From the NCBI GenBank assembly GCA_946625055.1, contig CAMOSS010000002.1, positions 1 through 40,314 of the forward strand: a stretch of 40,314 bases of DNA, read 5' to 3'. Shown piece by piece: positions 4,070 to 37,592 of the stretch (positions are counted from its first letter, which is position 1; each line of letters opens with the position of its first letter). The position numbers and the translations under genes were made by a program. Source of the stretch: an uncultured Bacillales bacterium. GTDB taxonomy: Bacteria; Bacillota_I; Bacilli_A; RFN20; CAG-826. Below the pieces are notes generated by a model that saw nothing but the letters and a program-made list of their open reading frames with translations, had not been told where the DNA came from and made no database searches.

Positions 4070-5074
4070 ATGAGTAGACTCCTTGATGCAAATATCGATA
4101 AAAAAGAAGCTCAGTATGAGACTTCCTTAAGACCACAATCTTTAAAAGAATATGTCGGTCAAGAAGACTTGAAAAACAATTTCAAGATCTTTATTGGTGC
4201 CGCTCTGCATAGAGATGAACCTCTCGATCACATTTTGTTATATGGTCCTCCAGGACTTGGAAAGACTACCCTTGCCAATGTCATTGCTAATGAAATGCAT
4301 GCTAACATTCATTTAGTAAATGGTCCGGCTATTGAAAAAACCGGAGATTTAGCCTCCATCCTTTCCATGCTTGAACCAGGTGATGTTTTATTCATCGATG
4401 AAATTCATAGACTCCCAAGAGTCGTGGAAGAAGTTTTATACGGAGCAATGGAAGATTTTAAACTTTCAATCATGATTAATCGCGATTCTAATGCTAAAGC
4501 ATTAAATCTTACTCTTCCTCCATTTACTTTAATTGGTGCAACCACAAGAGCTGGTGATATTTCATCTCCATTAAGAGCGAGATTTGGTATCACAGAAAAA
4601 CTTAATTTCTACACAGAAGAAGAAATCAAAAAAATCGTTTTAAGAAGTGCGAGAGTCTTTAATGTCACCATTGAAGATAGTGCAGCACAAGAAATTGCCA
4701 AGCGTTCAAGAGGAACGCCAAGAATTGCAAATAGACTCTTAAAAAGAGTGAGAGACTTTGCAAATTATGAAGGAAAAGACGATATCACATTAAATGATGC
4801 TTTAATGGCATTAAAAGCCCTTAAAGTTGATTCCATCGGACTTGATGATGTCGATATCCGTTATTTAAAAACACTCATTGAAAGATTCAATGGTGGACCA
4901 GTTGGTTTAGAGGTTTTAGCCAACGCTATCGGAGAGGAAATTATGAACCTTGAAGATGTTTATGAACCATATCTTTTACAGATTGGTTTGATTGATCGCA
5001 CCCCAAGAGGGAGAATGGCGACCACAAAAGCCTATGAGCATTTGAAGATTGCTCACCAAGGAAAATTATTTTAA
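4070..5074 (+). CDS. ruvB: Holliday junction ATP-dependent DNA helicase RuvB
   Basis: [12 protein letters not shown], Walker [10 protein letters not shown], Walker B LFIDEIHR, sensor [11 protein letters not shown]. Confidence 0.97.
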
Positions 5075-23969: not shown

Positions 23970-25154
23970 ATGAGCAAAGTAATCGTCCATATTGATTTAA
24001 ATATGTTCTTCGTTAGATGTGAGGAAATCAAGGATCCTAGTCTTGTCGGAAAGTGCGTCGCTATCGGGCATGAAGGAAGAAGCGGGATTGTTTCAACGTG
24101 TTCCTATGAAGCAAGGAAATATGGCGTTCATAGTGGAATGCCAATGTTCCAAGCCACAAAGGCATGTAAGAACCTTATCATCATTCCTGGCGATTATAAG
24201 TTTTATCGTGTGATGTCTCACTCATTCATCTCTTTTTTAAAGAGATATACCAAACTTATCGAGCAGGCATCCATCGATGAATGCTATTGTGACTTCACAG
24301 AGCAATTAAAAGGAAAGAAAGACATCATTCAATATTTCAAAGATTTACAAAACTCTTTATACAAAGAGACAGGTTTAATGTGTTCCATTGGAGTAGCCCC
24401 AACTAAGTTCTTGGCTAAAATGGGATCTGACTATAAAAAACCAATGGGTATAACAATCATAAGAAAAAGAGACATCCCTACCATATTATATCCTTTGGAT
24501 ATATCACAAATGTTTGGTGTTGGTAAGAAAAGCGTTCCTCGTTTGAAGAAATTAGGCATCAATACGATTGGTGATTTAAAAAAGAGGATGGATGAACATA
24601 ATAAAGATGTTTTTAACTCTTTCGGAAAGTTTTATTCAACACTAGAAGATTGGCTTAATGGAAAAGGTGATGACATGATTGATATGAATCCTTGGGATCC
24701 AAAATCAATTGGCAATTCAACAACTCTTCCTCATGACACAGACGATATAAATGAAATAAAAGAATATTTTTATTCTTTATGTATGGAAGTATCAAAAAGA
24801 GCCCAAGACGAAGATAAGATTGGTTCGACCATCCAAATAGTGGTTAAGGATGTTAACTTTGTTTCTAAGAACAAATCCATAACAATGGATGCCCCAACCA
24901 ATTCGTTTAAAACTATATACGCGAACGCGGTCAGGTTATATGAAGAGAACTTCTTAGGAACTCAAGTCCGTTTAGTGGGTGTCACTCTTCAAAATCTTGT
25001 CTCTAAAAGAGACATGACCATTCAAATGACTTTATTTAATTATGAAGAACACGAAAGTGAATCTCAAACGAAGCTTTTGATTAATGAACTTAATAGAAAA
25101 CTAAAGAAGCCATCTCTAAAGAGAGCCTCGGAATTGGAGGAAGATAAAAAATGA
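23970..25154 (+). CDS. dinB: Y-family DNA polymerase IV
   Basis: HIDLNMFF (compare DMNSFY in the Bacillus homolog) and the SIDECY catalytic pair, with a little-finger C-terminus. The track start at 23943 is a TTG. The first ATG at 23970 gives the family-typical N-terminus. Confidence 0.9.
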   Translation: MSKVIVHIDLNMFFVRCEEIKDPSLVGKCVAIGHEGRSGIVSTCSYEARKYGVHSGMPMFQATKACKNLIIIPGDYKFYRVMSHSFISFLKRYTKLIEQASIDECYCDFTEQLKGKKDIIQYFKDLQNSLYKETGLMCSIGVAPTKFLAKMGSDYKKPMGITIIRKRDIPTILYPLDISQMFGVGKKSVPRLKKLGINTIGDLKKRMDEHNKDVFNSFGKFYSTLEDWLNGKGDDMIDMNPWDPKSIGNSTTLPHDTDDINEIKEYFYSLCMEVSKRAQDEDKIGSTIQIVVKDVNFVSKNKSITMDAPTNSFKTIYANAVRLYEENFLGTQVRLVGVTLQNLVSKRDMTIQMTLFNYEEHESESQTKLLINELNRKLKKPSLKRASELEEDKK

Positions 25155-26029
25155 GAATCGATGATGCCCTAGATTTATATTCCCAATTCCTCATCGCAGA
25201 AAAAGGGCTTTCAATTCAAACTGCCAAATCGTACATCAACGATATTTTTCAATTCGCAACATTCTTGCAAAAAGACTTTGTTGAGCAATTAGAAACAGAT
25301 GATCTTCCAGCTTTCATCAAGTATAGACTCTCTATCGGTAAAACTGTTTCAACAGTGGCTAGAGAAATGTCTTCAATTAAGTCTTTCTTTATCTTTCTCA
25401 AGAAAGATGGATATTACGAAGGAGATATTCCTAAGGTTGAATCGATTAAAAAGCCTGAAACATTGCCGACATGTCTATCTGTTGAAGATGTGGAGTTACT
25501 ACTAGGCGCACCAAATATGGAAAAAGATAGTGGCATCAGGGATAAAGCAATGCTTGAACTCATGTATGCAACTGGTTTACGTGTTAGTGAACTCCTTTCT
25601 TTAGAAAAGAATAGAGTCAATCTTGAAAGAGGTATTGTCAGCGTTATCGGTAAAGGCTCAAAAGAAAGAAAAGTTCCAATGGGAGACTTTGCTGCTGACT
25701 ATGTCAGGAAGTATATTGATGAAGTTCGTTCTCATAATAGAGGGCGTGGTTCTAAATATTTGTTTCTAAATAAAGCAGGAAAGCCGTTATCAAGACAATA
25801 TTTCTTTAAACAAATTAAGAAATATGCCTTTGAGGTCGGTATCGAAGATAATATTTCACCTCACACATTAAGACACTGCTTCGCCACCCATCTATTAGAG
25901 AATGGAGCGGATTTAAGATCTGTCCAGGAAATGCTTGGACACACTAATATTGCAACAACACAAATCTACACGAACATTTCAACCAAAAGAATTGTCAGTG
26001 TATATGATTTGTATATGAATAAAAAATAA
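25151..26029 (+). CDS. xerD: Tyrosine recombinase XerD/XerC family
   Basis: SAM-like N-terminal domain. Catalytic motifs ATGLRVSEL, HTLRHCFATHLL, LGHTNIATTQIYT. ATGA overlap with dinB. Confidence 0.88.
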   Translation: MRIDDALDLYSQFLIAEKGLSIQTAKSYINDIFQFATFLQKDFVEQLETDDLPAFIKYRLSIGKTVSTVAREMSSIKSFFIFLKKDGYYEGDIPKVESIKKPETLPTCLSVEDVELLLGAPNMEKDSGIRDKAMLELMYATGLRVSELLSLEKNRVNLERGIVSVIGKGSKERKVPMGDFAADYVRKYIDEVRSHNRGRGSKYLFLNKAGKPLSRQYFFKQIKKYAFEVGIEDNISPHTLRHCFATHLLENGADLRSVQEMLGHTNIATTQIYTNISTKRIVSVYDLYMNKK

Positions 26030-26064: not shown

Positions 26065-27285
26065 ATGGCATATACATATAAAAGAATCTTTGTTATTGTT
26101 GCCGATAGTGTTGGCATCGGCTATATGAAGGACGCTGATAAGTTCTTTAATGCTGGTCACAACGATATTGGAACAAATACATTTGTTCATACCGCTGAAT
26201 TCTGTGGTGGATTAAATATCCCAGTGATGAATTCAATCGGTGTCGGAGATTTAGATGAAATCAAAGGAACATGCAAAGTTTCTCATCCTCATTCCTATGT
26301 TGCTAAATCAAAAGAAAAATCAAATGGTAAAGACACAATGACTGGACACTGGGAAATGATGGGCGTTTACACAACCAAACCATTCCAAACATTTACTGAA
26401 ACCGGATTCCCAAAAGAATTAATGGATGAATTAGAAAGAAGAACCGGTCATAAGCTTATCGGTAATTACGCTGCCAGTGGAACTGAAATTCTAAAAGAAT
26501 TAGGTCCTGAACAAATGAGAGATAACTCTTTAATTGTTTATACATCCGCAGACTCTGTTCTTCAAATTGCTGCTCACGAAGAAGTGACAGGTGTTAAAGA
26601 ACTATATAGATGCTGTGACATTGCTCGTGAAATCTGTATGAAACCAGAATGGAAAGTGGGAAGAGTTATTGCCCGTCCATATATTGGCACAGATCCATCT
26701 AATTTCAAGAGAACACCAAATAGACACGACATCGCTTTATCTCCAGAAGAAGATACAGTGATGAACATTTTAGCTAAAAAAGGCTTTATGGTGTCTTGTA
26801 TCGGCAAAATTGGAGACATTTTTAACGGCTCAGGAGTGGTAAAAACTCAAAAGACAGTCTCTAATGAAGATGGAATGGATAAAACCATTGAAGAGGCTAA
26901 AAACCATGATTTCACCGGAATCTGTTTCGTCAACTTGGTTGAGTTTGATTCAGAATACGGTCATAGAAGAAATCCAAGAGGCTATGGAGATTGCTTAGAA
27001 GCCTTTGACAAGCGACTTGGAGAATTAATTGATAATCTTAGAGATGATGACTTAGTCATCGTTACTGCTGATCACGGAAACGATCCAACATGGTACGGAA
27101 GCGACCACACAAGAGAAAAGATTCCATTACTCATGTATTCACCATCCATCAAGAATGGTAGACATCTTGAAGAAAGAGAAACATTTGGAGATATCGGTGC
27201 AACAATCTTAAAGAACTTCCACCTTGAAAAACCAGATAATCTCTTAGGTTCACCAATTGAAGAGCTTTTAGCAGACAATAGATAA
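26065..27285 (+). CDS. deoB: Phosphopentomutase
   Basis: IVADSVGIG N-terminus, the TADHGNDPT metal site, 406 aa. SD AGGAGGG is upstream. Confidence 0.93.
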   Translation: MAYTYKRIFVIVADSVGIGYMKDADKFFNAGHNDIGTNTFVHTAEFCGGLNIPVMNSIGVGDLDEIKGTCKVSHPHSYVAKSKEKSNGKDTMTGHWEMMGVYTTKPFQTFTETGFPKELMDELERRTGHKLIGNYAASGTEILKELGPEQMRDNSLIVYTSADSVLQIAAHEEVTGVKELYRCCDIAREICMKPEWKVGRVIARPYIGTDPSNFKRTPNRHDIALSPEEDTVMNILAKKGFMVSCIGKIGDIFNGSGVVKTQKTVSNEDGMDKTIEEAKNHDFTGICFVNLVEFDSEYGHRRNPRGYGDCLEAFDKRLGELIDNLRDDDLVIVTADHGNDPTWYGSDHTREKIPLLMYSPSIKNGRHLEERETFGDIGATILKNFHLEKPDNLLGSPIEELLADNR

Positions 27286-27306
27286 TTATAAAAAAATATA
27301 AAAATT

Positions 27307-27329
27307 AAGACACCTTTGGTGTCTTTTTT
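27307..27329 (+). terminator. Rho-independent terminator after deoB
   Basis: aagacacc ttt ggtgtctt followed by TTTTG. Confidence 0.85.
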
Positions 27330-27439
27330 GTTATGCCTACATTTTTATAAAAATTTTTTAAGAGAAAATGCATTTTTTTACGAAATGTATATATAGGGGG
27401 TTTATTTAAAAGAATCTCAAATAGTGGAGGTAACTCATA

Positions 27440-27828
27440 TTGAAAAGAAAACAATTCAGAAGACATTTTAGGATTTATTTCGTCAATAATCATCCAGCCT
27501 ATATCGTCGATGAGGAAGGCAATAAATACGTGTTTCATCGTGTGACTCATTCAAAAACAACTGGAGGAAGAAAAAAATTATAAAAGACAACCCTCTTAAA
27601 ACTGGAGGAAAAGGAAAAACATTTATTGTTAGAAGAGAAGAAAAAGACAAAAAAGGAAGATTCAGCCTTTTTGAAATCGAAACAAAGCCTGGAGTTGATA
27701 TTTCATATCCAGAAATAAAAAAAGCTAGAAGGGTACAGACTAGACATGAATCAAATCATGGTCGTACAACAATAACATCTAGCAAAAACATTGAATCAAA
27801 TAACTATAGAAAAAACAAGGAAAAATAA
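27440..27828 (+). pseudogene. Small very basic protein gene split by a -1 frameshift at an A7 tract (pseudogene, phase-variable gene or recoded gene)
   Basis: SD GGAGG (27426-27430) precedes a TTG at 27440. Frame 0 stops at TAA 27581-27583 after 47 codons. The -1 frame is open from 27526 to TAA 27826-27828 but has no start codon. The two frames join across A7 (27571-27577). The 11-mer AACTGGAGGAA occurs in both halves, 41 nt apart, and encodes T-G-G in the respective frames. Confidence 0.6.
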
Positions 27829-27944
27829 AAAGCTGGCGGATCACAGAATAGCAACCATTACGGTGCAAACGTGAATAATGTAACAACCAGCAAAATTATT
27901 AAATCAAAAACGGAGCACAGATTCAATAAAAAATGGAGACTAGT

Positions 27945-28475
27945 ATGAAAAAGACAATTGAAGTAAACGAAAACACAACCGAAGAAAAAGAAAAAAGAAA
28001 GGCAGTAGCGTTAAGAAATCAAATCGAATGGATAAAAAGGCAACTTGATTATCTCAATTTCTCAAAAGATTACAATTTGAGGCTAGATATCAAGAAGGGA
28101 GAGATCTATGAATTCGATTGGGGCATCAATGTGAACGCCGAATTTTCCAATCGACATTATGGAGTTGTGTTAAAAGACTCAAGCGCAATAAACCCATTAG
28201 TCTTGGTTTGCCCATTGAAGACTAAAAAGAAAACAATGAACACTTGGCCAAGCATGGATCTAGGAATTATCGATTGCTTGAATACAGAAAAAGAGACTCT
28301 AGCAATAGTGAACCAAACACGTTCAATAGATAAGTTAAGATTGTTTTCAAGAAGTATAATTGGTAATACAGATAATCTAAACGATAATCCACCAAGATTA
28401 ACAGAAGAATTAACTAATGAAATTTTAACTACATATATTAAGTATATAAGTGGCGTAACCATAAAAATTCTGTAA
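27945..28475 (+). CDS. MazF/PemK-superfamily protein with an N-terminal extension (putative endoribonuclease toxin)
   Basis: KKGEIYEFDWGINVNAEFSNRHYGVVL...NPLVLVCPLKTKK...ETLAIVNQTRSIDKLRL aligns by eye to B. subtilis MazF ([26 protein letters not shown]...AIVAAITAQ...DSVILLEQIRTIDKQRL). SD GGAG precedes the ATG at 27945. The track start at 27933 has no SD. Confidence 0.7.
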   Translation: MKKTIEVNENTTEEKEKRKAVALRNQIEWIKRQLDYLNFSKDYNLRLDIKKGEIYEFDWGINVNAEFSNRHYGVVLKDSSAINPLVLVCPLKTKKKTMNTWPSMDLGIIDCLNTEKETLAIVNQTRSIDKLRLFSRSIIGNTDNLNDNPPRLTEELTNEILTTYIKYISGVTIKIL

Positions 28476-28500
28476 AATAGCGGATGAAGTGCTAAAAATA

Positions 28501-28533
28501 TTAGTACTTTGTTAGTAGTTTTTTAGTAACTTG
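28501..28533 (+). repeat. Three perfect TTAGTA hexamers at an exact 11-bp period
   Basis: TTAGTActttg TTAGTAgtttt TTAGTAacttg, with hexamers at 28501, 28512 and 28523. An inverted copy TACTAA is at 28554-28559. Confidence 0.8.
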
Positions 28534-28564
28534 AATATGTGGGAAAGTCTACTTACTAACTGTG

Positions 28565-28602
28565 GGAATACGGACGAAATATCAGTATCGTATTCCTTTT
28601 TT
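28565..28602 (+). terminator. Rho-independent terminator of the island transcript
   Basis: ggaatacg / cgtattcc 8-bp stem with a 16-nt loop, followed by TTTTTTATT. Confidence 0.7.
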
Positions 28603-28746
28603 ATTAGATTAAATCTTATTTATTTAGTTATTAGTTTACATAATGACTATTATGCGAAGTTATCTATGTTTTAAAAAATGAGTGGGAAATGTGGAATCTA
28701 TTACTTCTACTCCAAACTGTCATTTCTGCGATCCTCAAAAAATAAA

Positions 28747-28779
28747 AGATAACCTATTGCTGTTTATATCAGGTTATCT
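28747..28779. terminator. Terminator hairpin downstream of nadD-yqeK (strong on minus, weak on plus)
   Basis: agataacct / aggttatct 9-bp stem. The A-run 28735-28746 gives a U-tract on the minus strand. The plus side is followed by atatttta. Confidence 0.7.
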
Positions 28780-28835
28780 ATATTTTAGGCCAATTTCTGA
28801 TGAATGTGAATTTATATTTTTAATTTAATAAACTA

Positions 28836-29924
28836 TTATTTGTGGGATAAATAATTATCGAAACATTTCTTGGTTAATCTGTTGTTTATGTCTTTTCTAT
28901 TGCCTTCAAGGAATTCTTTGTTGGCTTGAAGCACTATGACGAACCCTTCTTCGTCATTTTGAAGGCAAGAATTAATCAAATCTGTGGAATCAAAGCCTCT
29001 TGTTGGCTCAATTTTATCTGCTGCATAGATTATTTTTGCTAGTCTGGACATTGGATAGTTCCCTGTAGCGTGATATTTAATTGCTTCCACTATGTCTTCT
29101 CCCATTCCGAACTCTTCTTTTGCAATATATGATCCGATAAATTGGTGATAGCTAAACGCTGGCAAATCAGCATACTCACTAAAGTGAGTATTCATTAATT
29201 CTTTGCTTTTCTCTTTTTCCACTTCTTTTCCTATGTCATGAAGTAAACCAGCATAAAAAGCTTTTAAAGGATGTTCCATATTGTTAGAAAGAGCAATTCT
29301 AAAGGCTAGCAAAGCCACTTGTTTGGAATGTTCATATCTATTCTTAGACAATCTTCCTTTAATAGCCTCAAGCATGTATAAATCATTCGCTGCGATGTAC
29401 TCAACTAAAGAATATGGGAGATAGTCATTTGCCTTCATTGATTTAAAATCAGACGAAGAAACATAAATGTCTTCTCCTTTGATCTCTCTCATGTGATATT
29501 TAGTGATATTTTCATTATTATCATCAAAATCTTCTCTTGAGTAATATACGATTTGAATCAAATTAGCGATTTCATCAGCGTTTTTCCATAAATGGAAATC
29601 TCTAACTTGATCTCCTCCAATTAAAAGATAAAGTTCATCATTGGGATATTCTTTTTTGAAATGCTTAACTGTATCGATTGAGTAATTCTTTTCTTTGTTT
29701 GTCGTGCTTTCATATAAAGAAAGTGAGAATCTTGGATAATCTTTGATAAGGAGATTAATCATCTCAACTTTTTGATTAAAGCTGACACTCGTGTCTTTCC
29801 AGACAGAAATAACTGCAGGAACAAAAATAACATCAGCGTCCAGTTGTTCTGAAGCCGCTGAAGCCATTTTTATGTGCCCAAGATGAATTGGGTCGAATGC
29901 CCCGCCAAATATTATTTTTCTCAT
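28836..29924 (-). CDS. nadD: Fused nicotinate-nucleotide adenylyltransferase NadD and HD-domain YqeK (Ap4A hydrolase family)
   Basis: N-terminal GGAFDPIHLGH nucleotidyltransferase motif. The C-terminal half carries the HD motif HS...GLLHDIGK...KYHA. ATGA overlap with the yhbY stop. Confidence 0.88.
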   Translation of the reverse strand: MRKIIFGGAFDPIHLGHIKMASAASEQLDADVIFVPAVISVWKDTSVSFNQKVEMINLLIKDYPRFSLSLYESTTNKEKNYSIDTVKHFKKEYPNDELYLLIGGDQVRDFHLWKNADEIANLIQIVYYSREDFDDNNENITKYHMREIKGEDIYVSSSDFKSMKANDYLPYSLVEYIAANDLYMLEAIKGRLSKNRYEHSKQVALLAFRIALSNNMEHPLKAFYAGLLHDIGKEVEKEKSKELMNTHFSEYADLPAFSYHQFIGSYIAKEEFGMGEDIVEAIKYHATGNYPMSRLAKIIYAADKIEPTRGFDSTDLINSCLQNDEEGFVIVLQANKEFLEGNRKDINNRLTKKCFDNYLSHK

Positions 29925-32011: not shown

Positions 32012-32044
32012 ATATCTACTAAATATCTACTAATTATTGACTAA
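32012..32044 (-). repeat. Three 11-bp tandem units carrying TTAGTA (minus-strand sense), beginning at the parC stop codon
   Basis: The plus strand reads atatcTACTAA atatcTACTAA ttattgACTAA. The first two 11-mers are identical. On the minus strand this is TTAGTC-N5-TTAGTA-N5-TTAGTA, and the parC TAG stop lies inside the first unit. Confidence 0.8.
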
Positions 32045-36788: not shown

Positions 36789-37565
36789 ATGGATATTATT
36801 TTATATAATATACTCGCTGGATTTATTTGCGTAATTATTGGATATTTATTTGGTTCGATACCTTTTTCAATCATAATTGGAAAAGTATTTTTTAAGAAAG
36901 ACCCTCGTGATTATGGCTCAAAAAATGCAGGTGGCACTAACTGCATGAGAGTTTTCGGAAAAGGATGGGGTATTCTTGTCATTTGTTTAGATGGTTTGAA
37001 GACTGTCATTCCTGTCTGGATGTGTTTCTTAATCATGACATATGCAAAATTTGGTGGTCAAACACTCCTTCCAGATGTTAGAACCTGGCTCGAAACAGGT
37101 GTTGATGCCTACACAATCAAATATCCAGCCTATTGGTTGTCCGCTGCCGGTGTTACTTTAGGACACTGTTACCCATTATTTGCCGGATTTAAAGGCGGAA
37201 AAGGTGCAAGCAATATTTGGGGTTTATTATTCACCACTTCTTGGATGCACTTATTAATCCCAATGGCAGCCTTCTTCATCGTCATGAAAAAGACAAAATA
37301 TATGTCATTATCTGTCCTTGTTTCACACCTTATCGCCACTATTACTCAATGGACCATCACCATATTAATTTTAACCCATGTTCTTCCTTCATGGTTCGTG
37401 TGGTTTCAAGGATATGGACCAACATTATATCTCTGTTTGACTTCCTCAATTGTCTACACATTCTGCTTCTTAATGATGGTTATTAGACACAAAGCCAATA
37501 TTCAAAGATTAATGAACGGTACAGAAAGAAAAATGGGAGAAAAAGTTGAAACAGCAAGTAATTAG
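36789..37565 (+). CDS. plsY: Glycerol-3-phosphate acyltransferase PlsY
   Basis: GSIPFS...DPRDYGSKNAGGTNCMRV, GHCYP and FKGGKG motifs. Divergent from parE as in Bacillus (yneS). At 258 aa it is longer than the usual ~200 aa. Confidence 0.9.
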   Translation: MDIILYNILAGFICVIIGYLFGSIPFSIIIGKVFFKKDPRDYGSKNAGGTNCMRVFGKGWGILVICLDGLKTVIPVWMCFLIMTYAKFGGQTLLPDVRTWLETGVDAYTIKYPAYWLSAAGVTLGHCYPLFAGFKGGKGASNIWGLLFTTSWMHLLIPMAAFFIVMKKTKYMSLSVLVSHLIATITQWTITILILTHVLPSWFVWFQGYGPTLYLCLTSSIVYTFCFLMMVIRHKANIQRLMNGTERKMGEKVETASN

Positions 37566-37578
37566 TACTTATTTAGTA
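37562..37578 (+). repeat. TTAGTA-N5-TTAGTA phased direct repeat starting in the plsY stop codon
   Basis: TTAGTA at 37562-37567 contains the plsY TAG stop (37563-37565). The second TTAGTA is at 37573-37578. Period 11 bp. Confidence 0.75.
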
Positions 37579-37592
37579 AATATTGAATAAAG

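Follow-up and report, generated by a model that had tools for sequence, protein, structure and literature searches.

A candidate replication-terminus junction carrying dif, a solo long MazF gene and a proposed decaying, type I-like small-gene/antisense-RNA module in uncultured rumen-type Bacilli

The segment analyzed here (positions 27286–28835) belongs to a 40,314-nt stretch of DNA from an uncultured Bacillales bacterium (contig CAMOSS010000002.1), referred to below as the window. It is flanked on the left by deoB (26065–27285, plus strand) and on the right by a fused nadD-yqeK gene (28836–29924, minus strand), so that the two bordering operons point toward each other, and is best read as the junction where replication of a rumen-type Bacilli/Erysipelotrichaceae chromosome terminates, together with a decaying type I-like toxin/antisense-RNA module. 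This reading comprises three layers: a dif site between two convergent terminators, where chromosome dimers would be resolved by XerC/D; a resident solo "long MazF" gene (open reading frame 2, ORF2), which would have been retained beside dif across the lineage; and a single recent insertion of ∼0.5 kb, which would have brought in ORF1, a gene for a small basic protein of mobile-element origin, together with two tandem units of ∼108 nt. The ∼0.9 kb made up of ORF2 and its downstream spacer is conserved terminus architecture, and the ∼0.5 kb containing ORF1 and the two units (∼27415–27930) is the sole lineage-specific part, an insertion that is already decaying. As an account of structure, the combination of a terminus with dif, a resident ORF2 and inserted ORF1/antisense units is probably correct. 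The original prediction had treated the segment as one 1.5-kb accessory insert and overlooked both dif and a 108-nt direct tandem repeat (27712–27927).

The candidate dif site, ACTTCGCATAA-TAGTCA-TTATGTAAACT (28633–28660, minus strand), lies in the spacer 3′ of ORF2 and has the 28-bp, 11-6-11 architecture of XerC arm, 6-bp center, and XerD arm. Twenty-two of its 28 positions are identical to the experimentally defined Bacillus subtilis dif (ACTTCCTAGAATATATATTATGTAAACT), including 11/11 in the XerD arm, and the XerC arm has CGCATAA in common with Escherichia coli dif (reference sequences from PMC3025954). A degenerate dif pattern gave one match in the 40-kb window, where 0 were expected by chance, and a single copy was present in 18/18 ORF2 loci, always in the ORF2-nadD spacer, as compared with 0/62 other loci. 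Firmicute dif sites have been recognized by similarity to B. subtilis dif, by position at the skew switch and by single copy per genome (PMC1914069). The similarity is described above, and the cumulative GC skew of the window reaches its maximum at 28–30 kb, where the GC and AT skews both change sign; copy number, checked within the window and the related loci only, was one in each. A xerD-like gene is found at 25151–26029, 2.6 kb from dif.

The ORF2-nadD spacers of seven lineages share conserved blocks in a fixed order, with phased YTAGTAG copies followed by TGTGGAAAAGT, GATTAAATCTTATTTATTT, and a nearly invariant GTTWACATAATnnnnnATTATGCGAAGTT, the last of which has the dif sequence as its reverse complement (28660 to 28633). 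The 97% homology between the related loci L041 and L043 stops exactly at the outer edge of dif in L043, where a foreign segment encoding a Rep_OBD protein begins. This segment (L043:4666–8525, with dif at 4666–4692) carries several further small ORFs and stands in place of the nadD side; it has the appearance of an element that entered by Xer recombination, resembling the dif-integrating elements known as integrative mobile elements exploiting Xer (IMEX), and its breakpoint would give indirect support for XerC/XerD recombination at the candidate site. The site itself is an ordinary dif between convergent operons at a skew switch, unlike its companions, the long MazF gene, a TAG-repeat motif and DnaA-box-like TGTGGAAAA boxes, which are undescribed in such a setting. 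The earlier remark that no att duplication flanks the region was thus misleading, a chromosomal Xer site being located inside it. More generally, where convergent housekeeping operons are separated by a gap with repeats and a toxin-fold gene but no integrase, the gap can be a plain terminus with dif.

ORF2 (27945–28475, plus strand) encodes a protein of 176 residues and is the last plus-strand gene ahead of dif. Its best start is the ATG at 27945, 6 nt past GGAG, and the 98%-identical homologue P0121 starts alike. Homologues with 43–59% protein identity occupy the same deoB/nadD-yqeK junction in six lineages, in addition to the conspecifics. Around five of them (P0218, P0140, P0188, P0128, and P0222) the gene order is dinB-xerD-deoB-(0 or 2 transporter-like genes)-ORF2, facing nadD/yqeK-yhbY-yqeH-yqeG-parC, and in the related locus L077 ORF2 comes straight after deoB with 110 nt between them. 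Because the homologues are syntenic at the junction without ORF1, ORF2 is regarded as a lineage-conserved resident gene and not as an accessory or island gene. Its conservation is core-gene-like, with 27 invariant columns across 40 family sequences. ORF2 and the spacer hold the junction in every relative examined, and the single-insert view fails on this point: the outcome named in advance as its refutation, the same genes at this junction in relatives with core-like conservation, is what was found for two thirds of the segment. The proposed comparison of the junction across relatives did uphold a smaller insertion, since ORF1 and the 108-nt repeats proved lineage-specific, whereas ORF2 and the spacer were kept in the six lineages and the conspecifics.

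The original assignment of a MazF/PemK fold with an extra N-terminal part to ORF2 was borne out. Pfam PemK_toxin (PF02452) matches residues 54–141 with 26.5 bits (cutoff 23.1), a profile of 40 homologues matches MoxT/MazF/EndoA chains in the PDB, and the AlphaFold model (predicted local distance difference test, pLDDT, 80.7) superposes on Staphylococcus aureus, Bacillus cereus, and B. subtilis MazF with Foldseek template modeling (TM) scores of 0.72–0.77. Relative to MazF, the modeled barrel is preceded by a long N-terminal helix (residues 12–42) and, as an additional extra element, followed by a C-terminal helix (residues 154–169). ORF2 thus shares with type II MazEF/PemIK systems the fold, and it has an invariant Arg and a Lys-Thr pair that align to within one residue of the MazF catalytic positions. 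It differs from these systems in its extra N-terminal helix of ∼50 residues and C-terminal helix, in its chromosomal, syntenic, and core-like occurrence adjoining dif, and in its neighbors: type II toxins have an adjacent cotranscribed antitoxin gene, and no small antitoxin gene adjoins ORF2 in any syntenic locus examined, its upstream neighbor being deoB, a permease gene, or, in this species only, ORF1, and its downstream neighbor dif. The protein would most likely cut or bind RNA, restrained or targeted by its own extra helices and not by a separate antitoxin; an RNase activity is inferred.

A solo MazF-fold gene is conserved in this way beside dif across a clade of uncultured rumen Bacilli. 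Distant long MazF proteins with 33–37% identity, N-terminal helix included, are encoded by solo genes that immediately follow rep in small plasmids of Bacillus and Natranaerobius, and related proteins occur near the integrase of S. aureus prophages; the architecture is therefore also found on mobile elements, again without a partner gene. The genes on B. subtilis plasmid pSX01705-2 (L051:2360–2959) and Natranaerobius pNTHE02 (L052:2420–2980) encode long MazF-like proteins of 186–199 residues, lie directly downstream of plasmid rep or overlap it, and have no antitoxin gene annotated beside them. Such placement suggests an independent role on replicons for the solo long MazF architecture.

The inserted part of the segment begins with ORF1, which, as originally described, is a basic small gene led by a Shine-Dalgarno sequence and split by a −1 frameshift. 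Its 5′ part (27440–27583, plus strand) uses a TTG start at 27440, GGAGG lying 9 nt before it, breaks at an A7 run (27571–27577) and terminates just after it at a zero-frame TAA (27581–27583); the 3′ part (27577–27829, plus strand) resumes in the −1 frame, with a conserved core ending in …PEIKKA (∼27726) and a tail that lies under the unit 1 antisense gene. The repaired product of 129 residues has >450 intact homologues of ∼128 residues with 55–72% identity, none bearing a Pfam domain, and an exhaustive profile search collected 135 clusters at 50% identity. No match to ORF1 was found in Pfam, NCBIfam, PHROGs, or PADLOC, tblastn against phage and plasmid collections gave none, and its profile returned only noise against the PDB. 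Ten distant relatives likewise had no match in Pfam, and the source names within the family are all "hypothetical protein." A resemblance of the conserved His/Asn/Tyr pattern of ORF1 to HNH or GIY-YIG motifs was dropped, as no model supports it. The structure and profile searches proposed for the two proteins were therefore informative for ORF2 and produced neither a family nor a confident model for ORF1.

All 37 ORF1 genome loci are in metagenome-assembled genomes of uncultured rumen or gut Bacilli/Erysipelotrichaceae, and tblastn of these loci detected no ORF2 or deoB nearby, with nadD nearby in one distant exception only. Their contexts vary, many copies lying directly upstream of a comFA-like gene and others in a slot between an FtsX-like permease gene and pdxK-cysK, and distant family members are located in the integrase/cI-like repressor/cro-like early regions of integrated elements. 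ORF1 is thus an independent, dispersed, and often broken gene. A leader, tttttttacgaaa…tatataggggg (27370–27412, plus strand), precedes it and is similar, in a by-eye comparison, to the spacer between deoB and ORF2 in L077 and to the ribosome-binding region of that ORF2. The leader is probably the ancestral ORF2 upstream region, today preceding ORF1, and on this comparison the ∼0.5-kb insertion appears to have been placed between ORF2 and its former leader.

The two units behind ORF1 are predicted antisense small RNA (sRNA) genes on the minus strand, assigned from direct repeats, covariation, strand asymmetry, promoter alignment, and folding. Unit 1 (27716–27818) has a predicted −35 TTGTTT (27818–27813), a TG and −10 TTCAAT (27798–27790), a start at ∼27783, a hairpin (27783–27724), and U7 (27723–27717). 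Unit 2 (27821–27926) repeats the layout with −35 TTGAAT (27926–27921), TG and −10 TTTAAT (27906–27898), start at ∼27891, hairpin (27891–27832), and U5AU5 (27831–27821). Each hairpin consists of an outer stem (GCYRGN/NCYRGC), an A-rich internal loop, an inner stem in which a base is bulged, and a tip that varies. A sister strain carries three units, and unit 2 of the window is a recombinant of sister units 2 and 3. An Rfam scan of 27250–28900 found nothing overlapping the units, even at E ≤ 10.

A covariance model built from five equal-length units identified 44 copies, all oriented as ORF1. In the resulting alignment 90% of cells are paired, compared with 69% after shuffling and ≤36% in slid controls; both-sided changes are seen in 12 of the 13 pairs, and the covariation score of 0.395 against 0.137 was reached by 0/500 shuffles. 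A sequence-only nhmmer search recovered nearly the same set of units. A scan of metagenomes with a pattern independent of ORF1 placed the unit right behind an ORF1 homologue at 13 of its 21 loci and next to ORF2 at none, the remaining loci being mostly weak or chance matches. The strand is indicated by the non-Watson-Crick cells, which on the plus strand comprise 37 A·C/C·A against 3 G·U over seven pairs; read on the minus strand, these become wobble pairs, and the paired fraction increases there from 90 to 97%. Folding is also more stable for the minus strand in 28/37 units. A plus-strand RNA element or mRNA stabilizer was rejected on the same asymmetry. Directly 3′ of the hairpin, the minus strand has U6–8, complementary to the run of A residues coding for the invariant Lys-Lys in …IKKA, and upstream it has a conserved TTG, a 17-nt spacer, and TGnTTTAAT, with the first stem base as +1 and a perfect TTGACA in some copies.

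Each unit would accordingly be described as a promoter-hairpin-terminator cassette, predicted to yield an RNA of ∼60–70 nt antisense to the ORF1 tail. Such an RNA would be perfectly complementary to the ORF1 mRNA, in the 3′ coding tail for unit 1 and in the 3′ untranslated region for unit 2, and would repress or destabilize it in the manner of type I antitoxins with 3′ convergent overlap. A predicted RNA gene embedded in the tail would account for the RNA-like covariation of the ORF1 tail peptide (AG…TS, AR…SS, and AG…PG) and for the persistence of additional units out of frame or past stop codons. Part of a protein's C-terminal sequence thus seems to be dictated by an antisense RNA gene inside it, promoter and terminator included. 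The predicted tandem antisense hairpin RNA genes over ORF1 are of an undescribed kind.

The family-wide layout points the same way. Six ORF1 variants are tail-less and have no unit, and in 6/6 the gene is followed on the minus strand by the Rfam motif cow-rumen-1 (RF02946; E values of 1e-8 to 1e-11), at L012:4520–4582, L019:650–710, L031:4383–4445, L017:4454–4516, L023:4439–4500, and L032:1674–1735. In L031 and L012, those examined, a minus-strand terminator comes after cow-rumen-1 and its U-run overlaps the lysine-rich end of ORF1. Cow-rumen-1 is an orphan motif from rumen metagenomes, and its name was not found in the searched literature text. It shares position and strand with the units, convergent and downstream of ORF1, and differs from them in that the units of the window are another, shorter hairpin that matches no Rfam family. 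A short conserved ORF (MANDHR[VI]PP…) comes after the 3′ AAGAGG of the motif. Among the distant ORF1 members, 4/4 examined have a convergent predicted promoter (TTGACT-17-TATAAT in one), a structured segment, and a U-tract just beyond or over the stop codon. As the same layout recurs across subfamilies, the unit of inheritance is therefore taken to be a basic gene of ∼100 codons with a convergent cis-antisense RNA, the RNA being interchangeable.

Among the alternatives, the best surviving sees in the units a locally spread repeat family of plain intrinsic terminators, or of insulators, that act against transcription on the minus strand, with ORF1 an ordinary, non-toxic gene and no sRNA function. 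Each unit indeed ends in a hairpin followed by U6–8 on the minus strand, and in L005, L024, and L059 the last unit lies 60–100 nt past the stop codon of a convergent gene. This would leave the conserved −35, TG, and −10 elements right upstream of the hairpin, at promoter spacing, without a role, and termination does not need the conserved bulge and asymmetric internal loop; moreover, no minus-strand gene faces the units in the window, and other members of the ORF1 family have unrelated antisense RNAs at the corresponding position. A terminator-only function is for these reasons considered improbable, although it retains real weight.

Interpreted as antisense RNA genes, the units place ORF1 beside the type I toxin-antitoxin systems. 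In Firmicutes, type I pairs with convergent 3′ overlap include B. subtilis txpA/RatA and bsrG/SR4, which reside on prophage-like elements, and the known toxins are mostly hydrophobic peptides of <60 residues. ORF1 resembles these in being a small, mobile-element-derived gene that faces a predicted, convergent cis-antisense sRNA, the terminator of which overlaps the 3′ end of ORF1, in its scattered genomic locations, and in the frequent decay of the protein gene; at the sequence level, the cis-antisense RNA is represented by a predicted promoter, a covarying hairpin, and a U-tract. It differs in that the sRNA gene, promoter included, lies within the coding tail and can occur in 2–4 tandem copies, and in that the RNA partner varies by subfamily (hairpin unit, cow-rumen-1, or others). 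The sRNA transcription, the repression of ORF1, and the toxicity of ORF1 are all deduced from this layout. A joint function of ORF1 and the antisense RNA as toxin and antitoxin is a serious possibility, with the balance leaning somewhat to the other side. More tentative is the broader proposal of an undescribed, mobile-element-derived toxin/antisense-RNA family made up of ORF1 proteins and their convergent sRNAs, including cow-rumen-1. The putative toxin would here be a basic, soluble protein of ∼100 residues, and the RNA genes, embedded in its coding tail and amplifiable in tandem, would serve as joints for the shuffling of small gene cassettes. Such a family, as yet unannotated and absent from Pfam, would give cow-rumen-1 its first functional context. 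A terminus-related role for the long MazF kept beside dif is considered less likely than this family reading. The earlier expectation of a toxin-module-like insertion therefore holds in reduced form, for the left ∼0.5 kb with ORF1 and the repeats, which is lineage-specific and decaying, and with an antisense RNA and not ORF2 as the partner.

Several observations weigh against the proposed reading. The ORF1 product is 95–130 residues long, Lys/Arg-rich, and hydrophilic, unlike a membrane peptide, and its AlphaFold model has a pLDDT of 41 and no predicted fold. The unit promoters and terminators are sequence predictions only, four units have no promoter flank, and the alignment that gave the covariation had been fitted to the covariance model. 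Units also occur behind unrelated small genes (MqsA-like and lipoprotein), and some follow closely on convergent minus-strand genes and may serve there as plain terminators. For the remaining layers, the uniqueness of dif and the skew switch were assessed within the 40-kb window only, and the invariant R70 and K92-T93 of ORF2 align one position off Arg25 and Thr48 of B. subtilis MazF.

Between the FtsX-like permease gene and a pdxK-cysK fusion gene there is a variable slot, in which small genes are mostly followed by a unit. Its contents include ORF1, a gene for an MqsA-like helix-turn-helix antitoxin, a gene for a lipoprotein of 155 residues and, in L065, a gene of 111 codons in the toxin position. 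With u denoting a unit, the order is ORF1-u, MqsA-like-u, lipoprotein-u-u in L059:6854–8540; ORF1-u, MqsA-like-(half u)u, lipoprotein in L021:2715–4317; ORF1-u, lipoprotein-u in L024:3968–4968; ORF1-u, MqsA-like-u in L005:3980–4946; and the 111-codon gene with MqsA-like-u-u, without ORF1, in L065:438–1471. The homology breakpoints of the slot fall inside or at units, and, as these arrangements indicate, the small genes have evidently been reshuffled by recombination, homologous or site-specific, from unit to unit.

These arrays invite the explanation that the units are DNA-level recombination sites, folded single strands like attC, and that the ORF1, MqsA-like, and lipoprotein genes are mobile cassettes. 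In addition to the variable, cassette-like arrays between the same flanking genes (L059, L021, L024, L005, and L065), it would account for indel boundaries inside or at units and for the copy number of two or three between strains, and the succession of stem, unpaired spacer, stem with an extrahelical base, and variable tip has the layout of such sites. This mechanism was nonetheless ranked low because no recombinase gene lies nearby, no integrase being found within 4 kb of any array. The integron core sites (GTTRRRY) are also missing, with an outer stem of GCYRGN/NCYRGC instead, the promoter and U-tract are left unexplained, and homologous recombination between repeats of ∼100 nt could yield the same indels. 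Site-specific cassette exchange is consequently held to be unlikely, more so than simple termination.

The state of the ORF1 gene itself was compared between strains. Compared with sister strains, the A/T run of ORF1 is 1 nt shorter in the window (A7TT against A6T4), and this loss of one base causes the frameshift. Three conspecific contigs (L001-3) are in frame at the A/T run but lack 2 bases right after the TTG start. As two strains carry different lesions in ORF1 and retain the units, decay of the module has set in, with its predicted RNA genes still kept. Elsewhere, ORF1 is disrupted by a frameshift in L032, by a stop codon in L038, and by internal deletions in L030, L040, and L070.

Instead of decay, the interruption could reflect programmed −1 ribosomal frameshifting or transcriptional slippage at A AAA AAA, or else phase variation. 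A perfect slippery heptamer with a zero-frame stop two codons on is what this would predict, and both strain-specific disruptions lie in A-runs; yet the >450 homologues are single-frame, the sister strain is in frame at the very site, and other ORF1 copies are broken by stops or deletions, which makes regulated frameshifting very unlikely compared with decay. A homopolymer sequencing error at the A7 run is possible.

The original view of a single toxin or defense cassette, with ORF1 as antitoxin or regulator, ORF2 as toxin and TTAGTA repeats as iterons, drew on the toxin fold of ORF2 and on the adjacency of the two genes, which lie on the same strand and are probably co-transcribed here, and is now highly improbable: the two genes co-occur in this species only, 0/37 ORF1 genome loci encode ORF2, no ORF1 is present at ORF2 loci outside the species although ORF2 is syntenic in six lineages, PADLOC gave no match, and TTAGTA is a general post-stop motif. 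Equally improbable is a type III-like arrangement, suggested by structured tandem repeats immediately upstream of an endoribonuclease-fold gene, in which the units would be RNA antitoxin repeats for ORF2; the units travel with ORF1 (13/21 pattern matches adjoin ORF1, 0 adjoin ORF2), the upstream spacers of ORF2 homologues elsewhere (50–110 nt) are repeat-free, the wobble asymmetry indicates the opposite strand, and ORF2 has a PemK and not a ToxN fold.

The three YTAGTA(G) copies behind ORF2 (28501–28529, plus strand; 2.5 copies with an 11-nt period) are real, were found by repeat search, and are conserved after ORF2 in seven lineages. The period places TAG in all three frames (28502, 28513/28516, and 28524). 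Two-copy versions follow the stop codon of a parC-like gene (32022–32039, minus strand) and an ORF ending at 37565 (37562–37579, plus strand), both just ahead of a terminator, and TTAGTAG-N4-TTAGTAG also follows parC in the relatives L077 and L048. The repeats are read as a general post-stop motif of these genomes and may be a translation-stop or protein-binding motif of the clade. Their interpretation as iterons or as sites tied to ORF2 was rejected, as they follow unrelated genes and are absent near plasmid homologues of ORF2.

Farther into the spacer, boxes of the TGTGGGAAA type flank dif on both sides (28538, 28561, 28682, and 28690, within 28538–28698, plus strand), as identified by motif scan and spacer comparison. 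Of the six copies of GTGGGAAA or TGTGG[GA]A[AT] in the window, five lie inside 28538–28983, all on the plus strand, in agreement with the repeat cluster first noted there; the micro-ORFs reported alongside it cross terminators and dif and are unconserved. The TGTGGGAAA/TGTGGAAAA boxes are DnaA-box-like, and L077 (4544–4909) has perfect DnaA boxes, TGTGGATAA and TTATCCACA, in both orientations.

Three intrinsic terminators delimit the transcription units, all as originally located. That of deoB was confirmed by the terminator scan as an 8-bp stem at 27307–27325 followed by a T-run (27307–27331 in all, plus strand). The ORF2 terminator, GGAATACG…CGTATTCC followed by T6 (28565–28601, plus strand), is kept in conspecifics, and that of the nadD-yqeK operon, GATAACCT…AGGTTATC, is an inverted repeat (hairpin 28747–28779, within 28747–28786) with its U-run on the minus strand. 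The latter two are visible in the sequence and were missed by the scan, presumably, in the case of ORF2, because the hairpin loop exceeds the limit of the scanner. The nadD-yqeK fusion encodes 362 residues with CTP_transf_like and HD domains and is present in all relatives; no rsfS-like gene comes after it, as the terminus is where the operon stops.

A second small basic protein (…YIHSDGHGGHPALLYKK…, 107 residues) is encoded near ORF1 upstream of comFA (L031:5074–5397 and L070:199–507). The copy in L031 has no detectable homology to ORF1 (hhalign probability of 1%), and in L070 an internally deleted ORF1 with its unit is fused in frame to the N terminus of this protein. Elsewhere in the window, a ribosomal protein L21 leader (RF00559, 42 bits) at 1045–1121 on the plus strand is the sole Rfam family at gathering score.

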